DNA of 64,000 bases from a phage, in the sequence record NC_101837.1. The stretch is one strand, 5' to 3'. The notes under the pieces are model-generated. The model did not search any database, was not told the origin of the DNA, and worked only from the letters and a program-made list of their open reading frames with translations. The position numbers and the translations under genes were made by a program. This document shows positions 1,491-20,063 of the stretch, one piece after another (positions within the stretch are counted from its first letter, which is position 1; each line of letters begins with the position of its first letter).

Positions 1491-1871
1491 TTAATCGTAG
1501 TGTGCCAAAATCTCTCCATCGTTGCAAGTTCCCTCTACAAAGTTATGAAGATTCATGCACTCATCTTGATAGAAGAATTTACCGCTTTTCAGCCGTAGGC
1601 CAAACAACTCCGCATCTCCACGATGGCAAGCCTCTACAAGTTCATAGATTTCATACGGCAACTCTCCGTCGTCATGGAAGAACCCAGCCTTATCGTTGAC
1701 ATAGATGAAGAAATAATCACTACTGTCGCAAGCGTCCAATATTTTAAACCAGATTTCATCTACATCTTTTTCTCGGATATCGATCACGCAAGTGGAGCTG
1801 CATTCGTACTCCTTCTCCGGCTCCTCGGTCAATACCACCAGGTAGTTTCCCCGCTTACCTACTTTAGCCAT
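1491..1871 (-). CDS. hypothetical acidic protein
   Basis: ORF track 1491..1919; preferred start ATG 1869-1871 preceded by AAGGGGGG, which avoids a 38-nt overlap with the MoxR gene. Confidence 0.4.
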   Translation of the reverse strand: MAKVGKRGNYLVVLTEEPEKEYECSSTCVIDIREKDVDEIWFKILDACDSSDYFFIYVNDKAGFFHDDGELPYEIYELVEACHRGDAELFGLRLKSGKFFYQDECMNLHNFVEGTCNDGEILAHYD

Positions 1872-1881
1872 ACAACCCCCC

Positions 1882-3066
1882 TTAAGCTTTAGCCAAAATG
1901 GCGCTAAACTCTTCACCAAACTCTTTTACAATCTTCATCAGGTTTGGGTATGCTTTGATCAGCTGAGCAACAATCTTGTCACGCCCTTTACCGATAAGCA
2001 AGGCATTTCCTAAGGCATTAGGTTTCATCATCGCCATAAAGACTGAGAATACAAAATCTCGGTTCTCGTCCTTGAAGTTTTCCCAAAGGAAATCGAGGAA
2101 GTTTGCCACGCAGCTGACAAGATCTTCGTCTGAGATACTTGCATTTTCCATCATATTACGAATAGCGATACAACCTTCAGATCCAAGAATCCACAAAATG
2201 TCTGGCTGCTTAGGACCTACGTATTCTTTGCAGCCACCTGCCATAATCCTACCGATTTCCGGTAAATTGCGTTTCTTGGTGTGGTATGTCCAGATCTCTA
2301 CCGCTGCAGTGTGACCAATAGCACCTTGCAGAAGAACACGGGCCATAGCGTCAGAAATAATACCACTGTCAAAATCGTGCAAGATGTCAGATGCAGCAAC
2401 CCAAGATCGTGGTGTGGCAAAAGATGGACAATTAATCTCAGCCATAGCCTCATAATTATCAATAGCTGATGGAACTCTTTTCAGATACCCAATTACAGAG
2501 GAGTGAACCCCGTTGAGGAATGCGTAGTCCTCAATAAACACCTCTGCATTGCTTGTAACCTCTACAATGATAAAACGGTTAGCCAGAGGGGCTTCGAGCG
2601 CCGAAAGAACCGCACCATCTGTAGAACGGTTACCCGCAGCCACAAAAACAGAACCCTTAGGGAATGCATAGGTGCCGCACTTGTGGTCAAGCATAATTTG
2701 CATTGCAACCTTTTGCAGGTAGTTATCTGCATGAGTGAGCTCATCCAGAAAGATAATTCCGCTCCAGTCAGGATCCGCAGGCCAAAATTCTGGAATTGCA
2801 AACACTGTACGTGTAGTTCCATCCGCTTCTACAGGGATAGGTAGCCCAGATAAGTCGGCAGGATCTTTATCTGACAGTCGCACGTCAACAAGGTTGTCAT
2901 CTCGCTCACCGAACATATTATCAGCGATCTGCTTCATCACCTGGCTTTTACCCACACCCATTGGTCCCAAAATTAGGACAGATCGGCTATGACGTTGGGC
3001 AAACTGAATGATAGCTGGCAACTCACGGACAGTGATTTGACCACTTTCAAATACGTTTCTTGACAT
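1882..3066 (-). CDS. MoxR-like AAA+ ATPase (CobS/RavA-type)
   Basis: 394 aa; Walker A LILGPMGVGKS, Walker B IIFLDELTHA, sensor AAGNRS; start overlaps stop of upstream gene. Confidence 0.65.
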   Translation of the reverse strand: MSRNVFESGQITVRELPAIIQFAQRHSRSVLILGPMGVGKSQVMKQIADNMFGERDDNLVDVRLSDKDPADLSGLPIPVEADGTTRTVFAIPEFWPADPDWSGIIFLDELTHADNYLQKVAMQIMLDHKCGTYAFPKGSVFVAAGNRSTDGAVLSALEAPLANRFIIVEVTSNAEVFIEDYAFLNGVHSSVIGYLKRVPSAIDNYEAMAEINCPSFATPRSWVAASDILHDFDSGIISDAMARVLLQGAIGHTAAVEIWTYHTKKRNLPEIGRIMAGGCKEYVGPKQPDILWILGSEGCIAIRNMMENASISDEDLVSCVANFLDFLWENFKDENRDFVFSVFMAMMKPNALGNALLIGKGRDKIVAQLIKAYPNLMKIVKEFGEEFSAILAKA

Positions 3067-3371
3067 TAGTAAAAATCCTCTACTTGTGTGTAAGTGTTTT
3101 CAAAGTTTTCCAAAACAGATGTCACATCGGATCTGTCAATATCGTACACAACTTCCCAGTTGTATGCAACCCTTTCTGCTGTTGCTTCTTCAGGACTTAG
3201 CCGCCTGCTGGGGTGAAAGAATGCTGTAGTGCACCTTCTTAGTTGTCTTCCGGTTTTCCCATAACAATATCTGTGGATAACTTTGTCAAAATTTAACTCT
3301 TTTTCTGCACAAAGTTCGTGTTTCTGGTATAACATGTTTATTACTCTTTTAAGTGGCATCCTTGCCACCAC
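3066..3371 (-). CDS. hypothetical protein
   Basis: 101-aa ORF, tightly packed in minus-strand operon. Confidence 0.4.
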   Translation of the reverse strand: MVARMPLKRVINMLYQKHELCAEKELNFDKVIHRYCYGKTGRQLRRCTTAFFHPSRRLSPEEATAERVAYNWEVVYDIDRSDVTSVLENFENTYTQVEDFY

Positions 3372-3374
3372 CCG

Positions 3375-3755
3375 CTAGAATGCAGTCCGAATCCAGACAA
3401 GGTTCTTATCTGCCCAATCATAGAGGCAAGTCATTGCGCTATTAAATTGCTCGCACGGAGGATAATCTTCTTCCATCTGGCGCATAGCAGAGCCTTGGGG
3501 GTAAAGCTCCCGTGCTGCAAACCACGCATCGTAGTCATCCACGGTATCGAAGTAGTATACAACATCCTCCAACTCAGGATCGAACTTTGAATTATCAGGA
3601 TCCAGTTGTTCAGGGAACTTGGAGCGTAACTTGCCAGCCACAATACTTGCCAACTCGCTAACATGCTTATTGTCCCACTCTACTAGTTTCCCGTCTTCAG
3701 TGATGCGTCCTAACCACTGATCATGCAGGTCAACCGTTGTCTTCCACCGGGTCAT
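3375..3755 (-). CDS. hypothetical protein
   Basis: 126-aa ORF in operon, acidic. Confidence 0.4.
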   Translation of the reverse strand: MTRWKTTVDLHDQWLGRITEDGKLVEWDNKHVSELASIVAGKLRSKFPEQLDPDNSKFDPELEDVVYYFDTVDDYDAWFAARELYPQGSAMRQMEEDYPPCEQFNSAMTCLYDWADKNLVWIRTAF

Positions 3756-3757
3756 TA

Positions 3758-4015
3758 TCAGTCCACCTCTTCTTCTCGTTGTAGTTCAAGATACCCGTAG
3801 GTCTGGATATCTTCAAAAGTGTGGAACTCCCCATCTGCCGCTAAGGCACGAACAACTTGGCACAAAACCTTATGAGGAACTTCATCCAGACCCAGATTCA
3901 GTGCAGGGAACACCTTATCTAAGTCAACAAAATAAACGAACTGTAGCTCACCAGCTTCAAAAGGTGTATCTTCAATAAACATCTTCTCGGCATTAGTCAA
4001 GATCTGAACTTTCAT
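3758..4015 (-). CDS. hypothetical protein
   Basis: 85-aa ORF in operon. Confidence 0.4.
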   Translation of the reverse strand: MKVQILTNAEKMFIEDTPFEAGELQFVYFVDLDKVFPALNLGLDEVPHKVLCQVVRALAADGEFHTFEDIQTYGYLELQREEEVD

Positions 4016-12602: not shown

Positions 12603-12633
12603 AAGAAAGGGGCCGTCTGGCCCCTTTTTATTT
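12603..12633. terminator. bidirectional rho-independent terminator between convergent transcription units
   Basis: stem GGGGCC/GGCCCC 12609-12624 flanked by A-tract on one side and TTTTTATTT on the other. Confidence 0.55.
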
Positions 12634-12641
12634 GCCTCCTG

Positions 12642-15600
12642 TTAACTAGGGAAGTTTGTATAAGCTTCGAGATGGTATTGCTGGTTACCAGGTAGCATAA
12701 CACCTATGCTTGCAACACCTAATGTTCTACCACCAGGGTTCCACTGAAACTTAAATCCAATCCAACCCGAGCTTCTGGCTGCATCAATGTTGTCACTGTA
12801 CCCAAAAGTGGCTAGACCATCAACACCTGCTCCGAAAAGCAGTTGTATCTGGTTCCTTGGTAGGCCAATAATTTCAGGTATGTAAGCACCAAAAAATGTA
12901 GGGTTGGTGGTTGTGGTCGGATTGTTCATGACCGGACCGGTAAAGACCCTCATATTGGACGTTCCTGCAGGTCTAGGGTAAGCCCCGTCAAGAGGATTTC
13001 CTTCCCAAATAAACCACTGAGGTGCCATCTGTCTGACAGTAAACGATGTTGAAGACGTTTTGCGGCCTGCATCATCTCTAACTACAAACTTTATGGTGAC
13101 ATTCCCAGTAGCTTTAAATGTTACCAGCCCTGTGGTGGCATCCACTGTTGCAATGTTGGTATTACTACTTTCCCAAGTCTTTCTAATCCCGGATACGTTG
13201 GAAGGGGTGATAGAAGGTTCCTGCATCTGCAGTTTACCGCCCACAATCCCTATGCCGTTGCCCGGATTATACAGCACACCGACCTCGTCTATAATGTTCC
13301 CTGCTTTGAGACTATACTTCCTTGAGAAGTTGTAAGTTCCGTTATAAGTGTGTGTCCCTGAGAATGTGACATCTGCCTTCCCGTAAGAGATGCAAACCAA
13401 CGCATACTTCCTGTCAGGCAACGTTTCTCCAGTCTCTGGGTGAGTTTTACCTACCTGGAACACACTCGGGTCAGTAGAGTCGTGACTATCACTAACGGAG
13501 CTTGGACCGCCCATCAACTGTGACAAACAATTCCTTACCCATGTCCAGTTATTATCGCTGGAGAAGTCCACAGTCAAATCAAACACAACCCACTCATTTG
13601 GCTTCCACACAGGTGTTGCAATGGACTTGCCTACACCGCCTCCTTGGAGTGTTGCCGACTGTTCGGTGATCAGTGCCGCATAGGCCAGAGTTCCTAAACT
13701 CAGAGTCTGGCTTGCTGTCCTCACTACCTTAGAATCAGCATCTGTGAAGTTGTTGATGATTTGGAATGTGCCATAAGTGTTTTTACAGGTAATTCTGGCG
13801 TTCAGCGTGTCAATCTTCCTCACATCTGCCATAGCAGTGTTAGACACAGAGAAGTCAGAAGCTTTAGCTGAGTTTGCCGCAACAGCAGGATCAACGTTAA
13901 GAGTTGCGTTGAACTGACAGGCAGGGGTAACCAGCAGCTTGTTATCACCTATTTGCTTCCATGAAATACTTTGGACAGGTAGATTCCATTTAATACCTGA
14001 GAAAACTTTAGCAACCCTTGGCCCCAGAGCTCCAGTTCTGTTGTCTTTACAGCACATAGACATGGTGATTGTTGACGGAGTAGCCTGTCCGAACAATTGC
14101 TGTGCTTTTGCAGAGGACATGGTGTAGAAATTGTCCTTAACAAACTCATCAGCGGCTAAAGATCCGTCAGCCCTCCACCATTGAACCTGATACCCTGTTT
14201 TGTCCCAACCACCGACCTGCTTCAGGTCTTCCCAGGAGATTTCTAGATCCCCAGTGGTAGGGTTGATTGCAGCAGCTCCTGGTGTTCCAGAGGACCATAA
14301 TGGGATATCGAACCACGCTGGTTTAGCAGACTGCACTGCACTAGGACCTATTGCAGCAGCAAGTTGCTGGCCCATCAATACACGAGCATCTTTCACCAGA
14401 CCCCACTCGATCATGGACCCGGAGTAACCTTCTTTCTTGTAGGCTGAGGATCCGTTCAAATGGATGAGTCGGCTTGTGCCAAAGTTATATGCTCCACCAC
14501 CGTTGTCGTCTGCAAAATTGTATATAACCCTATCTCTGATATCTTTCCATGCTCTACCGCCAATCTCGTAGTCATGGTCATAACATCTTTGCAATGTTGT
14601 CCAGCAAATGATCGCCATCCTTCTGCCGTCACTAAAGCCAAAGGCCTGATCGTTAAGCTCTCTCCACAAGTAGCAGTTAGTGGTCCACATAGCTCTGTGA
14701 ATGTTGAACCAATTTATAGACCTGGCTGCATTGTTGTAGGCGGTGCCTTCTAGCGTAGGCCACACTGCATTAACCAGCATGTCCTCTGTCCCTGCGTCTA
14801 TCAGGAATCCTCTCACTTTCTTACCCATTCCTACCCTATCCTTGGCAATCCATGAGCCGAACAATTTCAGTTTAGGACCGATTACGGCATCCTCTGGATG
14901 CTCAAGAGAGACATACTTCAAGTATACTGTAGGATCACCGTAGGTGCCATCACAAACAGCTTTGTGCATGTTTTCACCAAGGTCCAGACGGATACCTGTG
15001 AGAGTTTTGGTATCATCTGTGAACTTATCTGTCAAATCAAACTCGTACCACCACCACCCGGCTCCAAGTAAAACTTTCTTACAGCGCTTAGAGTCTGTGT
15101 CGGAGATTCTTTTATCTCCCGCATATGGTGAGTCTGCAAACTGGTAGTGCAGAGCAACTTCAAAAGGATGTGTGGATGTTCCGTTTTCTGCAAGAACTTG
15201 CTTTCCGATCAGATCGCATTTAATAATCATCACGACACGTCTGTACCCATTGGCAACTGGAACGTCGAACGGATACCTTGCACCATCCATATTCGCATGC
15301 AAAGCTGCGAAATTTATGTATGGGTCAACAGCGTTACCTAAAGTTTCAGGCCCTGGGATCATCTTGTACTTCTTGACCTGTCCCATGATATAGTCGCTGC
15401 CGTAGGTTGCAGCCTCGAAGCAAGAACCGCTGTCAGGCAGTTCAGCAGGCCCCCAAAAGTATGCCCCGTAACAATTATAGAACCACTTGTTAGGGTCATA
15501 GTTATTCTTGAAGGTCTGAACCTCGTTTGCCTGTTTTGTCAAGAAAACCTGAGTATCTGTAAAGATTGCAGGATTTACCCTTGCCTGACGCGGAGGGTAA

Positions 15601-18269
15601 CCTGTAGTTTGGTTAAACCACAGATTGCAAGAGTAATCCCTCATATAGTCATAATCAGAGTATTTGTTTACATCTTCGTTCCAACACATGTTCAGGTTGG
15701 TACCGCCCATGCATACAATATATTCTGCGACATACTTATCACTTCTGGTAGGAATACCTATGAACCATCTGTTAACAGGCTCATCCCAAGCTGTGCGCTC
15801 ATCTTTAACGCAGATAGCAATCCAGTCATGTGTTCCTGTTTTCTTGCACACATCTCGCTTCATACCATAGTAGAACTCTTTAGTATTCGGCTCAGGTGCA
15901 TTTATCAGGTAACTCCATGCCTGATTTGCATAAGTCCCATTGGTGCGCGGATCATGATCAAAGGCATACATGATGATCCTTTCCCCACCAAGATGTTCGC
16001 CAAGAGTAACTTTGACATTCACATCGCCGTAACCGTTGCGAACAACATCCATATTGTCAATAGAGATGCCTCTAGGAGTGTAGGCAATTTTCAGTGAGTT
16101 ATTCTCATTAGCGCCACCAAGAGTGACCCCTATGTTGTTTGTTGTCCCGTCGGCATATCTTACTGTGGCTTCCCAGCGTATTCCGAAATATCCTGCATCA
16201 TGACTAACAATTTTCAGTGTACGAGCACCAGAGTTAGGTTTTCCAGGATCAGGCCAAGGATCTGGATGTTCATGGACAGTCAACGATGTTCCGTTTTGCT
16301 CGTTGACCTGCAACATTTTACCGCCTCTGCCGTTAGGGTTGAACTCCCACAAGGCTTGTGTTTTCACAACATTGTCATACGTAGTACGTCTCTGATCGTA
16401 GATCTCTTGAGTCACATCGTAGGTTACAGACCCGGCATCCATTCTACAGAGTCGTACCATATACGATGTATCGCCTTCTACAGCAGGTTGAGCTGCGTTA
16501 AGCCCGAAGTATACAGTATCGTTGACATGGAACTGTTTGTTTCTACCGACAGTATGCCACTTGCCGTTGGACGGATACGCAGGAACTATGGTGTTCCAGT
16601 TCAAAGTTCTTGTCGTATGGGTTCTGCCTGTGCCATGCTTGTCATGATAGGTTATTTTTACAGAGTACAGGCCACGTCTGTTAACATTTCTGTTATACTG
16701 GGTAACAACAACTTCGTTGGCCCCACCGTGGTTCCAGTTGGTGGAGAATTGGTAATTTGCATCTGTAACAACCGTACCTGCAGCATTTACCAACTCAATC
16801 TTGTCAATAATGAACGTAGCCCCCTCTGGCTGAGGCTTCAATTTCATCTTGACCGTGTCACCAATGTAGATATTGCTAACACTACTAACACCATTAACGT
16901 CGAAAATATCATCAACGCCCCAACTGTCTACTGGGACATTTTTATACCAATTCTCAGGAACCTCTGTGAACCCCTGACTATTAAGTCTGCCGCCAAACAG
17001 GTTATTAGAGCCTGCAAAACTTCCCCTTGGGATGCCTGACCACCAAAGTTTGCCATTAACAACAGTAAAGGTCCCTAAGAAACCTTCTCTGTGGATACCC
17101 TGGAAATAAACACTTTCTGTCCAGCTTACTGGCATCCGTTGCTCGACGTATTTAGCCGTAGCCAGAGCCTGATAGTGAATAAAATTAGCCCTAGGACTGT
17201 TGTTTGCAGATTGTGCACCAATATCATTGCACAGATTGCGAGAGAAGCCACGATACTGTTTGGTGCCATTATTGAAGAAAATGCCACTTGTGCCGTATCC
17301 ACGAGCCATTATCACCTCATGGGTGTAGGTGATATTTAAGGAACGCCATGTGTCATCTCCCCAGACGTCTTGCCCGTAGAATACGTTAACAAGCTGTTGG
17401 TCATCAGGTTTGTGCATCCTTTCTGTGGCTATAATTGCACCATTAGGTCCACACATGAACCCTTTCCATGTCTCGCCCACCGGGATGCCTTTAAACTGGT
17501 CAAGAGTCACATGCTCGGCTGGATAAACTAGTGTGTTTTTGCTGTTATTTCTTAAGAAATCGTAACCTGCAATCCAGAATCCGTTAGGACCACCAAAAAT
17601 AACCGAGTTGTCATGAACTTCACAATTAATTCTTGGATTTTTCCAAGGACCTGTCTCTGGACTTTCAGATGTTTCACCGATCTTAACTGGAGTAGCGTGT
17701 TGACTTTTGTCAACATGAAGAGAGCCGTAAGTATTATTGCCAGAGCCGTACAGGTGAAGCATACCATCAGCCTCTGGTGCAGCAATTACCCACACTGTAT
17801 TGTTTACGCCACCCATTACTTCAACAAGTCTCTCAGGATGGGTGTCCAAATGCAACCCTGTTACGATCTGTTCCGGCAAAGGTGTCCACTCTCTGACACA
17901 AACATCGTTTCCACCTGCTGCCTCCGATCCGATAAGACCAGCTGTGCAACCAATATAGAAAAATTTATTATCGAATGTGCGGATTACAAATGCACGGTCA
18001 GCTCTCCAAACATGGTCTACGTTCCAAGCTGCCTCATTAGGATAGTTTATTGTATCAAGATCTCCAGTCCGACACTCTCCGAACCTATTATAGCCAGTAA
18101 TATTAAGCTGACCATCATCAAAAAGTATAGCTAAGCTATTTACATAGGATACTGTGTTGCTTGTACCATCACTGTTGTCTATTGGGTATGACAGAACAGC
18201 AAGTTCCTTAATTCCACCCCTCTTATCGAGGAAATGACGACCAAGTTTTAGCAAAGGGATTGGAAGCAT
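12642..18269 (-). CDS. giant tail fibre/tailspike-like structural protein (1875 aa)
   Basis: single uninterrupted ORF at distal end of tail-fibre block; Gly/Asn/Trp/Thr-rich composition typical of beta-rich fibre proteins; no catalytic motif confirmed. Confidence 0.45.
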   Translation of the reverse strand: MLPIPLLKLGRHFLDKRGGIKELAVLSYPIDNSDGTSNTVSYVNSLAILFDDGQLNITGYNRFGECRTGDLDTINYPNEAAWNVDHVWRADRAFVIRTFDNKFFYIGCTAGLIGSEAAGGNDVCVREWTPLPEQIVTGLHLDTHPERLVEVMGGVNNTVWVIAAPEADGMLHLYGSGNNTYGSLHVDKSQHATPVKIGETSESPETGPWKNPRINCEVHDNSVIFGGPNGFWIAGYDFLRNNSKNTLVYPAEHVTLDQFKGIPVGETWKGFMCGPNGAIIATERMHKPDDQQLVNVFYGQDVWGDDTWRSLNITYTHEVIMARGYGTSGIFFNNGTKQYRGFSRNLCNDIGAQSANNSPRANFIHYQALATAKYVEQRMPVSWTESVYFQGIHREGFLGTFTVVNGKLWWSGIPRGSFAGSNNLFGGRLNSQGFTEVPENWYKNVPVDSWGVDDIFDVNGVSSVSNIYIGDTVKMKLKPQPEGATFIIDKIELVNAAGTVVTDANYQFSTNWNHGGANEVVVTQYNRNVNRRGLYSVKITYHDKHGTGRTHTTRTLNWNTIVPAYPSNGKWHTVGRNKQFHVNDTVYFGLNAAQPAVEGDTSYMVRLCRMDAGSVTYDVTQEIYDQRRTTYDNVVKTQALWEFNPNGRGGKMLQVNEQNGTSLTVHEHPDPWPDPGKPNSGARTLKIVSHDAGYFGIRWEATVRYADGTTNNIGVTLGGANENNSLKIAYTPRGISIDNMDVVRNGYGDVNVKVTLGEHLGGERIIMYAFDHDPRTNGTYANQAWSYLINAPEPNTKEFYYGMKRDVCKKTGTHDWIAICVKDERTAWDEPVNRWFIGIPTRSDKYVAEYIVCMGGTNLNMCWNEDVNKYSDYDYMRDYSCNLWFNQTTGYPPRQARVNPAIFTDTQVFLTKQANEVQTFKNNYDPNKWFYNCYGAYFWGPAELPDSGSCFEAATYGSDYIMGQVKKYKMIPGPETLGNAVDPYINFAALHANMDGARYPFDVPVANGYRRVVMIIKCDLIGKQVLAENGTSTHPFEVALHYQFADSPYAGDKRISDTDSKRCKKVLLGAGWWWYEFDLTDKFTDDTKTLTGIRLDLGENMHKAVCDGTYGDPTVYLKYVSLEHPEDAVIGPKLKLFGSWIAKDRVGMGKKVRGFLIDAGTEDMLVNAVWPTLEGTAYNNAARSINWFNIHRAMWTTNCYLWRELNDQAFGFSDGRRMAIICWTTLQRCYDHDYEIGGRAWKDIRDRVIYNFADDNGGGAYNFGTSRLIHLNGSSAYKKEGYSGSMIEWGLVKDARVLMGQQLAAAIGPSAVQSAKPAWFDIPLWSSGTPGAAAINPTTGDLEISWEDLKQVGGWDKTGYQVQWWRADGSLAADEFVKDNFYTMSSAKAQQLFGQATPSTITMSMCCKDNRTGALGPRVAKVFSGIKWNLPVQSISWKQIGDNKLLVTPACQFNATLNVDPAVAANSAKASDFSVSNTAMADVRKIDTLNARITCKNTYGTFQIINNFTDADSKVVRTASQTLSLGTLAYAALITEQSATLQGGGVGKSIATPVWKPNEWVVFDLTVDFSSDNNWTWVRNCLSQLMGGPSSVSDSHDSTDPSVFQVGKTHPETGETLPDRKYALVCISYGKADVTFSGTHTYNGTYNFSRKYSLKAGNIIDEVGVLYNPGNGIGIVGGKLQMQEPSITPSNVSGIRKTWESSNTNIATVDATTGLVTFKATGNVTIKFVVRDDAGRKTSSTSFTVRQMAPQWFIWEGNPLDGAYPRPAGTSNMRVFTGPVMNNPTTTTNPTFFGAYIPEIIGLPRNQIQLLFGAGVDGLATFGYSDNIDAARSSGWIGFKFQWNPGGRTLGVASIGVMLPGNQQYHLEAYTNFPS

Positions 18270-18317
18270 TGTGTTCTCCAGATAAGAAAACCGCCCCGTC
18301 AGGAGCGGTTAGATATA

Positions 18318-20063
18318 TTAACGTTGTGCAATTACTACGTCTACAATATCACCAACACCACAATACGTTAATTGCAGCAAGGTAACACTGTTAGCCTTGT
18401 TGTTAATAACAGGTGTTGCCGACAGGATAGCATACTTATCGTGCAAAGTCACGTTGTGACCTACAGCATCCTGAATGACATAGATAACTGCAGTGAATGG
18501 ATAAGGTTTATCTTCCGCTGATGTCCCAGGCCACTGTCCTATTGTAAAATCCCCTTTCGCGTGGACAACATACATGCTGGCCTGCCCGTTAGGTGTCCAT
18601 GTCCCACTGGACGCGTCAACCTCCTCTAAGTCAAAATCTACCTTTCCTGCGTGGAAAGTAGGGGCAGTAATGGTTTTACCCGCCTCAATTTCTTGAGAGG
18701 TGGTTATCTTACCACTGGAGTTAATGCCATTACAGACAAAGTTGACATTAGAGAAGTCTGGCAGCCACCCGGTCACTGTGCCGGATATTTCAAGGTTGTG
18801 AAGGTGGGTGGTGCCAGTCCCTGCGGCGTTTAAACTAACATCTCCATTTACCTGCAAGTTTCTGGTAATGTTGCAGTTTTCAGAGTTTGCAGTTGTTGCA
18901 GTTAAAGTGGTGGTGGTTAGCTCGGTAATTGTACCTTTATTGGCTGTAAGCCCTTCTCCTTCAAAAGTTGCACGCTCATTGACTCTTAGAGTATTCAGAG
19001 CTATATTTTGGATAGAGGCTGTACCTCGAATAACTACAGACCCGCCAACCTCCAAATCGCCATTTATCAATGCATCACCCGTGCTTTCAATATAGCTAGG
19101 GTAGATCATGGTGCCATCGACAGAGTATGTTATCCCTGTAACGGTACCTGTCACCTCAAGGTTCTTAACCCTGGTGGTCCCATCGACCTGCAATGTCGGT
19201 TCGGTTGCTGCCTTCATGGCATTACCACGAATGTACACGTAGTCAAAAAAGTTATTACCCAGACCATCAAAATGCACATCGTTATTATTAGCCACTGGTT
19301 TCCCAGAAGTTATAGTGTCAGCTATAACCCTGTGGGTGGACACTTCATGAGGTTGCAGCTCTGTACTTCTCCAGTCTGCATGCTTAGGATCGCTCCACGC
19401 AAAAGTAAGTGTAGAAGTATTTGCCGTGAGGATTAGATTCCTAAAGCGTGCAGTAGAATCTGCCCCATTAACAGGTCCATGTAAGGTAAGGGTGCCACCA
19501 ACTATAGTGTTAGCGAGTTCTGTAAGACCTTTTACCACCAAAGACCCTACAGTAACTTTCATCCCCTCCATGGCTTTAAATATGCTATCAACATAGTCAA
19601 CAACAAACTCTGTGTTTGCTATGGACTCTGACTTATCGTCCATTGGAGGTGTAGGTACTCGTGGGTCACCTTCGAACCTCGGGCTGTTAAGTTTTGCGTA
19701 GTATTTTGCCATTACTGCAGAGTCGGTATATAATCTCCAGTTTGGAGATTGTGAAGGATCTGCTGGCATTCTAACCGGGTTAGATTTTGATGCTGCGGGA
19801 GCGTACCACCACTGAGGGCCTGTGTCCCCTTTAAACTCGTACAGCTGGTTAAAAACTGTTGTGGATGCACCATACGCCCAAGGGATCGGTGGCGTTTTAA
19901 AATAAAGGTTGTCAAGCATGGCTTTTCGTACCGTAGGGATGGTGGTCCCATCCTCTACGACAACTTCATCCACAGCGTTACCGTTGACAACCAAGTGCAA
20001 ACGTTCAGAATCAACAATTACTTGATCTACCGCCTGCTCAAAGCTTGTCATGTCTTGCGCCAT
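18318..20063 (-). CDS. tail fibre protein (581 aa)
   Basis: in fibre gene block; Thr/Gly/Asn-rich repeats. Confidence 0.45.
   Translation of the reverse strand: MAQDMTSFEQAVDQVIVDSERLHLVVNGNAVDEVVVEDGTTIPTVRKAMLDNLYFKTPPIPWAYGASTTVFNQLYEFKGDTGPQWWYAPAASKSNPVRMPADPSQSPNWRLYTDSAVMAKYYAKLNSPRFEGDPRVPTPPMDDKSESIANTEFVVDYVDSIFKAMEGMKVTVGSLVVKGLTELANTIVGGTLTLHGPVNGADSTARFRNLILTANTSTLTFAWSDPKHADWRSTELQPHEVSTHRVIADTITSGKPVANNNDVHFDGLGNNFFDYVYIRGNAMKAATEPTLQVDGTTRVKNLEVTGTVTGITYSVDGTMIYPSYIESTGDALINGDLEVGGSVVIRGTASIQNIALNTLRVNERATFEGEGLTANKGTITELTTTTLTATTANSENCNITRNLQVNGDVSLNAAGTGTTHLHNLEISGTVTGWLPDFSNVNFVCNGINSSGKITTSQEIEAGKTITAPTFHAGKVDFDLEEVDASSGTWTPNGQASMYVVHAKGDFTIGQWPGTSAEDKPYPFTAVIYVIQDAVGHNVTLHDKYAILSATPVINNKANSVTLLQLTYCGVGDIVDVVIAQR

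Follow-up and report, generated by a model that had tools for sequence, protein, structure and literature searches.

A giant propeller- and Ig-bearing protein that closes the fibre module of an rV5-like myophage is a candidate accessory adhesin

Results

A single 5.6-kb gene ends the fibre module

We analysed a 64,000-nucleotide (nt) stretch of phage DNA from record NC_101837.1 (the window) and, within it, the giant open reading frame (ORF) on the minus strand at 12642..18269. An initial annotation, made from the letters alone, had described one uninterrupted 5.6-kb ORF at the distal end of a fibre block, and both statements held. The ORF is a single intact reading frame with an ATG start, 1875 codons and one stop, and a GGAG motif (18276-18279) lies 7 nt 5' of the ATG. 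It is the phage's largest gene, and its product has 1875 amino acids (aa) and a mass of 208 kDa. Over its full length the DNA shares 99.5% identity with bas55_0041 of Escherichia phage JeffSchatz, and the gene order is the same. The ORF was matched in 121 phage records, 107 of which cover at least 80% of its length at 80-99% nt identity. In protein searches, full-length copies were confined to Vequintavirus (89-99.6% identity), and the source phage of the window is a Vequintavirus, that is, an rV5-like myophage. The features of the locus are collected in Table 1.

Orthologues from rV5 (gp27, 1878 aa), LL12 (gp26) and the BASEL phages, which form PHROG 15684, share the length and position of the giant protein and display no structural difference from it; bas54_0041 was likewise confirmed as an orthologue. 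Their annotations conflict: the rV5 record reads 'Ig-like domain-containing; cell wall surface anchor', the BASEL records read 'lateral tail fiber protein with intimin domain', and the LL12 protein is labelled 'hypothetical protein' and was left out of the fibre count by its annotators. The wider family comprised 15 homologue clusters with 41-89% identity and lengths of 1711-1976 aa. The ratio of non-synonymous to synonymous substitution rates (dN/dS), calculated pairwise by the Nei-Gojobori method against rV5, MaxBurger and MaxTheCat, was 0.07-0.15 with dS of no more than 0.53. Because dN/dS stays this low while dS reaches 0.53, the ORF is, by its substitution pattern, a real, conserved and functional coding sequence over the whole 5.6 kb, under strong purifying selection.

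The order of a fibre gene (581 aa), the giant gene and a strand switch was kept in rV5, LL12, the BASEL phages and two metagenomic relatives (123-140 kb). More broadly, a gene of this kind or a related one is the last of the fibre module in Vequintavirus, Phapecoctavirus, Seunavirus, Certrevirus and the metagenomic relatives.

The composition of the protein is biased, as had been noticed: Trp, Gly, Asn and Thr make up 3.0, 9.7, 7.3 and 7.9% of its residues versus 1.7, 7.8, 5.8 and 7.0% in the other long ORFs of the window, and Tyr is enriched together with Trp. The many long antisense ORFs had been ascribed to this bias. Five of the six are in the antisense frame whose triplets coincide with the sense codons. 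This frame contains 32 stops versus 78-174 in the other frames; stops are few there because sense TTA, CTA and TCA codons are their sole source. The longest open antisense run does not exceed what chance would give (P=0.16), and a comparison of the antisense stop positions among relatives revealed no conservation. We therefore rejected the antisense ORFs as overlapping genes; by these codon statistics they are an artefact of codon usage.

Two groups of database records deserve comment. Between 15 and 20 GenBank records in the series MG0656xx ('Campylobacter phage' C9, A135, C7, A12a and others) share over 90% identity with E. coli Vequintavirus across the giant gene, and their Campylobacter jejuni host label looks doubtful. 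A partial 'Eggerthella lenta' protein at NCBI (P0018) is 99% identical to part of the giant protein's N-terminal domain and is probably coliphage DNA within a bacterial assembly.

Table 1. Positions of the features at the giant-gene locus, in window coordinates
Feature	Coordinates	Strand	Evidence
Complete ORF, orthologue of rV5 gp27, bas55_0041 and LL12 gp26	12642..18269	-	Reading frame, synteny, dN/dS
M-[LF]-P-I-P peptide followed by predicted RCC1-like beta-propeller, aa 1-445	16935..18269	-	WD40_RLD, phrog_4219 and phrog_11922 profiles; invariant columns
Proposed docking module, aa 1-207	17649..18269	-	Similarity to Phapecoctavirus gp086, Seunavirus 4MG_038 and PVP-SE1 gp40
Beta-sandwich or Ig-like spacers, aa 452-830	15780..16916	-	AlphaFold2; weak PF16403 Bact_surface_Ig-like matches in homologues
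Central core, sequence orphan, aa 831-1340	14250..15779	-	Profile search; phrog_15684
Predicted carbohydrate-binding-module (CBM)-like beta-jelly-roll, aa ~965-1125	14895..15377	-	Similarity to solved CBM folds
Conserved Trp-rich region, predicted alpha-helical, aa ~1130-1330	14280..14882	-	Low-confidence AlphaFold2 model, alignment
FN3/Ig-like beta-sandwich array, aa 1341-1750	13020..14249	-	AlphaFold2 (pLDDT 60-90), Foldseek, BFVD, phrog_215
Big_2 domain, aa 1682-1733	13071..13226	-	PF02368, 34.7 bits (cut-off 22.8); modelled at pLDDT 80-91
C-terminal domain, two allelic classes, aa 1740-1875	12645..13052	-	Identity distribution over records
Fibre 'head', C-terminal ~105 aa of the 581-aa fibre (gene 18318-20063)	18321..18635	-	51% identity to phAPEC8 gp087, E=5e-27
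Terminator-like hairpin (9 bp, tetraloop, T tract) between fibre gene and giant ORF	18289..18310	-	Sequence, covariation
Bidirectional intrinsic terminator at the shared end of fibre module and convergent block	12606..12627	.	Hairpin, T tracts, rV5 annotation

An RCC1-like propeller at the N terminus

RCC1-like repeats had been suspected in the N-terminal ~350 aa, and profile comparisons support the assignment and extend it to ~445 aa. When aa 1-460 were searched in isolation, Pfam PF25390 (WD40_RLD) matched aa 45-199 with E=3.9e-4 and 20.3 bits, far under the whole-domain cut-off of 150, phrog_4219 ('regulator of chromosome condensation') matched aa 42-190 with E=1.1e-7, and phrog_11922 ('tail protein') matched the N terminus with E=4.5e-28. 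Seven blade-like segments with G-x-(G/N)-x-x-G-like ends were delimited by eye in aa 20-445. This part of the protein (aa 1-460) is almost invariant among all 16 family members, and the C-terminal third is strongly divergent. A word-index homologue search with aa 1-460 returned three near-identical fragments and nothing else.

The sole long segment shared with other phage genera is aa 1-207, which is 39% identical to phAPEC8 gp086 (Phapecoctavirus, 891 aa; E=2e-28) and has further relatives in Seunavirus, 4MG_038 (567 aa) and PVP-SE1 gp40, with identities of 30-39% across such relatives. Against PF00415 (RCC1, cut-off 21.7 bits), phAPEC8 gp086 scored 24.0 bits and 4MG_038 scored 36.9 bits; the respective E-values were 6e-11 and 7e-9 for RLD, and 4e-34 and 1e-42 for phrog_4219. 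By these profiles both proteins are unmistakably RCC1-like propellers with Big_2 domains. Because these homologues share aa 1-207 and pass the PF00415 cut-off, with the match of the window protein itself being weaker, its membership in the family is partly transitive; on the profile evidence, the N-terminal ~445 aa is an RCC1-like beta-propeller.

Structure prediction was performed with AlphaFold2 on two halves of the protein and a 16-sequence alignment, and the usable parts were the CBM-like domain, aa 735-850 and the C-terminal Ig-like domains. In the model of aa 1-850 (predicted local distance difference test score, pLDDT, 45.8), beta-strands were predicted in aa 20-230 at pLDDT 50-70, aa 211-452 were below 50, and aa 735-850, in the spacer region, reached 75-85.

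An orphan core with a CBM-like jelly-roll

An exhaustive search with a profile of aa 826-1340 against 1.84 billion representatives, into which ~15 billion proteins had been clustered, returned family members only. Because of this result, the ~500-aa core is considered an orphan at the sequence level, and phrog_15684 alone matched it in the PHROG comparison. Within it, the predicted model of aa ~965-1125 is similar in fold to solved CBMs, so that the core, as modelled, contains a CBM-like jelly-roll. No Pfam or PDB match assigned this block to a CBM family by sequence, and it had no homologues outside the family among the same representatives. It is also the most variable part of the core, with 77% identity between Vequintavirus alleles and 22-26% in distant relatives, versus 46-58% for its flanks. 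The ~200 aa that follow (aa 1130-1330) are predicted to be helical at low pLDDT and are strongly conserved, with invariant motifs that include EDMLV, SINWFNxHRAMW, EIGG and EGYxGSMIEWG.

A polysaccharide-degrading activity, which the initial annotation had envisaged, found no support: Pfam, NCBIfam, PHROGs, PDB sequence and profile searches, and the core search described above revealed no hydrolase, lyase or beta-helix in the giant protein. Nor was any Peptidase_S74, collagen or coiled-coil family matched as a trimerization element, and the predicted structure consists of beta-sandwich domains.

An Ig-like array and a dimorphic C terminus

The second half was modelled at pLDDT 55.0 overall. 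For aa 1341-1750, Foldseek matched cadherins, the S-layer proteins Sap and SbsC, NUP210 and the GhpA grappling hook, and the viral models of BFVD matched Hoc, Ig-bearing tail proteins and PVP-SE1 gp40; phrog_215 also matched this array. Direct family searches of the whole protein recognized Big_2 alone, and sequence and profile searches of the PDB found nothing besides it. An intimin/invasin identity was rejected: NCBIfam intimin_all scored 21.5 bits versus a cut-off of 1400 and covered aa 1696-1734, which are Big_2 only, and PDB intimin matches (E~0.007) fell on the same 48 residues of Big_2. Because the intimin matches fall on Big_2 residues, the 'intimin' label means no more than an Ig-like domain; judged by these alignments, the 'intimin' and 'Ig-like' product names both trace to the Big_2 domain only.

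The last 136 aa are strictly dimorphic. Among 113 Vequintavirus genomes, 37 had at least 95% identity with the window and 76 had ~65%, with no intermediates. This domain is one of three blocks in which the gene switches alleles: aa 226-300 in a loop region of the propeller, aa 901-1275 in the CBM-like and helical core (77-88% identity), and aa 1726-1875. Elsewhere the gene, a mosaic within Vequintavirus, encodes a protein that is 96-100% identical between phages. As far as sequence comparison can tell, this is the pattern of variation expected of surfaces that meet variable host structures.

Terminators on both sides of the giant gene

The ORF ends at a bidirectional terminator, as the initial annotation had proposed. 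It reads AAAGGGGCC-GTCT-GGCCCCTTT, a perfect 9-bp hairpin with T-runs on both strands, and the rV5 record annotates two opposed terminators at its position.

A second hairpin lies upstream. The gap between the 581-aa fibre gene and the giant ORF is 48 nt and contains, in order, the GC-rich hairpin, GGAG and the ATG, with the hairpin 20 nt before the ATG. Hairpins of differing sequence occupy the equivalent site in four lineages, namely Vequintavirus, the metagenomic clade, phAPEC8 and 4MG; the loci that carry one at this site are L004, L008, L009, L002 and L003. In an alignment of four sequences, six of nine pairs had changed on both sides and 97% of the cells were paired, and the phAPEC8 record annotates its equivalent as a terminator. 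Since a 48-nt gap leaves no room for a promoter, this arrangement implies that the giant gene would be transcribed through read-through of a conserved leaky terminator, and it therefore predicts a lower dose than that of the upstream fibre genes.

Virion presence and dispensability

Virion mass spectrometry (MS) was a check that had been proposed for the giant protein, and published data for rV5 provide weak evidence for its presence. In rV5 virions analysed by multidimensional protein identification technology (MudPIT), locus 27 (1878 aa) gave three semi- or non-tryptic peptides, nine spectra and 3.1% coverage (PMC3606486 Table S5), and we regard the detection of gp27 as marginal. Its propeller relatives are well represented in purified W70 virions, where electrospray ionization tandem MS gave 115 spectra for W70_106 (phrog_15692, the family of CR3 gp034) and 141-233 spectra for W70_237-239 (phrog_4219) (PMC11370258).

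In the HIDEN-SEQ transposon screen of Bas54, bas54_0041 was among the fibre genes that tolerated disruptive insertions on E. coli K-12, and some fibre genes were conditionally essential on clinical isolates (10.1101/2025.11.20.689424). Disrupted copies also occur in sequenced phages. A 1-nt deletion in DrSchubert (L007, bas50_0041) ends the protein at aa 1818, and the gene is split in the records of V18, APECc02, ime, nomine, naswa, Alma and phita32. Some of these copies may be sequencing errors, or they may reflect real loss during laboratory propagation; they are consistent with laboratory dispensability of the giant gene. The papers on CM1 and CB7 do not mention it.

A conserved fibre head on the other side of the junction

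The upstream 581-aa fibre shares with phAPEC8 gp087 only its C-terminal ~105 aa (the head), and the rest of phAPEC8 gp087 has a different body composed of Tail_spike_N and collagen. Thus the two stretches that Vequintavirus and Phapecoctavirus have in common here, the fibre head and the giant protein's first ~207 aa, lie on either side of the hairpin. The head was found in 384 phage records, including those of phi92-like phages, Certrevirus and jumbo phages, in which it belongs to a 'long tail fiber proximal subunit'. Because it is so widespread and occurs in such 'proximal' subunits, its distribution suggests that the head is a joint or adaptor to which distal parts attach.

In the Certrevirus CR3, a 1072-aa fibre ends in the same head and is followed by gp034 as the last gene of the module. 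CR3 gp034 belongs to phrog_15692 and matches phrog_4219 (1e-15) and WD40_RLD (5e-4); neither it nor the W70-type proteins had direct BLAST similarity to the giant protein. Of nine annotated fibres, a cryo-electron microscopy (cryo-EM) study of Bas54 and Bas49 fitted three, and the orthologue of the giant protein is not among them; in Bas54 the study described a density, not assigned to any protein, at the C-terminal head of one class of Vequintavirinae fibre, and its authors considered this head a possible adaptor for a tip adhesin (PMC12143355; EMD-51869). No RCC1-like protein is located in the phiTE cryo-EM paper.

Discussion

A proposed role for the giant protein

We favour, with moderate confidence, the view that the giant protein serves Vequintavirus myophages as an accessory adhesin, present in low copy and conditionally dispensable, and that it is composed of an anchoring propeller, a flexible chain of beta-sandwiches, a CBM-like module and a dimorphic C terminus. 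It would be a flexible beads-on-a-string arm rather than a classical trimeric fibre. The propeller segment aa 1-207 would anchor this arm to the C-terminal head of the 581-aa upstream fibre, and the CBM-like and C-terminal domains would be putative binders of variable surface glycans, an interaction that may aid reversible adsorption on some hosts and be unneeded on E. coli K-12. Because transcription must read through the conserved terminator hairpin 20 nt before the start codon, the protein would be made in small amounts. Taken by itself, docking of the propeller on the head of the upstream fibre is a step that we propose tentatively, as plausible yet somewhat short of probable.

Several observations weigh against this interpretation. 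The rV5 gp27 peptides were poorly ranked, and clearly non-structural loci were detected at an equal level (PMC3606486 Table S5). Both AlphaFold2 models were poor overall, leaving the propeller and the helical domain without structural confirmation, and an hhalign self-comparison for blade repeats gave one weak, non-significant off-diagonal match (E=0.59) in a shallow alignment (Neff 1.3). The four-sequence alignment behind the hairpin covariation was registered by hand. As for docking, the inferred partner is named solely by co-conservation and gene order; the fibre head does not occur exclusively with the propeller N terminus, being present in 384 records versus 213; and the cryo-EM fibre class with the unassigned density, TC8/RBP65, may or may not be the product of the upstream gene.

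A more far-reaching version, which we consider rather unlikely, holds that the core is a new glycan-recognizing or glycan-modifying module carried on a single-chain arm of ~2000 residues, and that head and propeller form a general socket system for non-fibre adhesins. If so, the core would join a CBM-like jelly-roll to a helical, Trp-rich domain that has invariant acidic residues, and the socket would be used by Vequintavirinae-like and other large myophages and would explain the unassigned density on the Bas54 fibre.

Alternative explanations

The initial annotation and, in part, the BASEL annotation imply a trimeric lateral tail fibre or tailspike of the classical kind, with a new polysaccharide depolymerase as its central domain. 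The protein does have the outline of a fibre, being encoded in the fibre module with a conserved N-terminal anchor and a variable distal part, its central 500 aa are conserved and rich in invariant Asp, Glu and Trp residues with no recognized fold, and neighbouring fibre genes encode glycosidase or deacetylase domains. However, the searches found neither an enzymatic fold nor a trimerization element, the core has no homologues outside the family and its helical part is merely ~200 aa, and the confidently modelled parts are single-chain beta-sandwiches that resemble monomeric Ig arrays and CBMs. With the protein also absent from the LL12 fibre count and from the fibres fitted in the Bas54/Bas49 structures, and dispensable on K-12, the classical fibre reading is not borne out and a depolymerase seems unlikely. 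We attach similarly little credence to a Hoc-like decoration of the head, neck or sheath, with the Ig array serving weak adherence to mucus or cell surfaces. Such a decoration would fit the laboratory dispensability known for Hoc, the filing of phrog_215 ('structural protein with Ig domain') under head and packaging, the BFVD matches to Hoc and Ig-bearing major tail proteins, and the fact that no density of the baseplate has been assigned to the protein. Nevertheless, the gene points the same way as the fibre genes, with nothing but a leaky terminator between it and them, and is the last fibre-module gene in four genera; its N-terminal family phrog_11922 is labelled as a tail protein; fibre head and propeller N terminus are co-conserved across the gene junction; and the likeness to Hoc is a generic Ig-array resemblance in BFVD (TM 0.09) with no sequence similarity.

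The marginal MS detection in rV5, together with dispensability, frequent disruption in sequenced isolates and the dependence of expression on terminator read-through, could alternatively point to a late-expressed non-virion protein that is freed at lysis or acts in the infected cell, for example by binding debris or receptors against the trapping of progeny. We judge this very unlikely: W70 virions contain related propeller proteins (phrog_15692 and phrog_4219) in abundance, the N-terminal sequence shows neither a signal peptide nor a transmembrane segment, purifying selection is strong across 5.6 kb, and the allelic blocks form a pattern typical of host-recognition proteins.

Comparison with known systems

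The accessory adhesin that we favour has partial counterparts. phAPEC8 gp086, 4MG_038 and PVP-SE1 gp40 (PHROG 11922) resemble the giant protein in gene position, upstream hairpin, M-[LF]-P-I-P start, first ~207 aa and downstream Ig-like domains, but neither the 500-aa orphan core with its CBM-like module nor most of the Ig array is present in them, and the window protein is two to three times longer. CR3 gp034, W70_106 (phrog_15692) and W70_237-239 (phrog_4219), from Certrevirus and Septuagintavirus, are likewise RCC1-like propellers by profile, whereas they are single-domain proteins of ~40 kDa. Tandem beta-sandwiches of the Big_2/FN3 type, thought to be weakly carbohydrate-adherent, are also found on structural proteins such as T4 Hoc, the C-terminal domain of lambda gpV, N4 gp65 and the SU10 nozzle protein. 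SU10 further combines a seven-bladed propeller with Ig-like domains, and a trimeric fibre docks on a loop of that propeller. Unlike the giant protein, these proteins have set positions (capsid, tube, sheath and nozzle) and no orphan core, and there is no sequence homology.

In T4 gp34-37, G7C gp63.1/gp66, CBA120 TSP1-4 and DT57C LtfA/LtfB, a distal part uses a conserved module at its N terminus for attachment to another fibre's end, and gene order mirrors assembly order. The distal parts of those systems are trimeric fibres or spikes, whereas here the distal part appears to be a single-chain, multi-domain adhesin whose attachment we infer.

rV5-like phages belong to the coliphages that are isolated most frequently, and both typing sets and therapy cocktails include them, yet it is still not settled which genes make up their multi-fibre adsorption apparatus (PMC8594841, PMC12143355, PMC13450770). 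The gene has had its place in catalogues since rV5; accessory adhesins with Ig domains and branched receptor-binding complexes were both known before, and no new biological principle is involved. What is new is the domain map, the rejection of the intimin and depolymerase labels, which can go, the finding that the core is an orphan, the conserved leaky terminator and the head-propeller cassette. A concrete placement, with the propeller on the upstream fibre head, is now proposed for the giant protein, and the allelic CBM-like block and the dimorphic C terminus are candidate determinants of host range.

Neighbouring genes in metagenomic relatives

Two further observations concern genes near the giant gene. 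In the metagenomic relative L009, the convergent block beside the giant gene encodes a 369-aa protein (16189-17298, minus strand) with a YadA_anchor domain of the trimeric autotransporter type, which is unusual for a lytic phage. In both L008 and L009, a gene at 1685-3763 on the plus strand, of the bas55_0034 type found in the fibre module of the window, encodes NCTSP_N and TIM-barrel_NCTSP domains. These domains are named after the non-contractile tail sheath protein of the phage N4 gp65 type, and their presence agrees with a published proposal that a fibre targeting enterobacterial common antigen (ECA) is common to these phages and N4.

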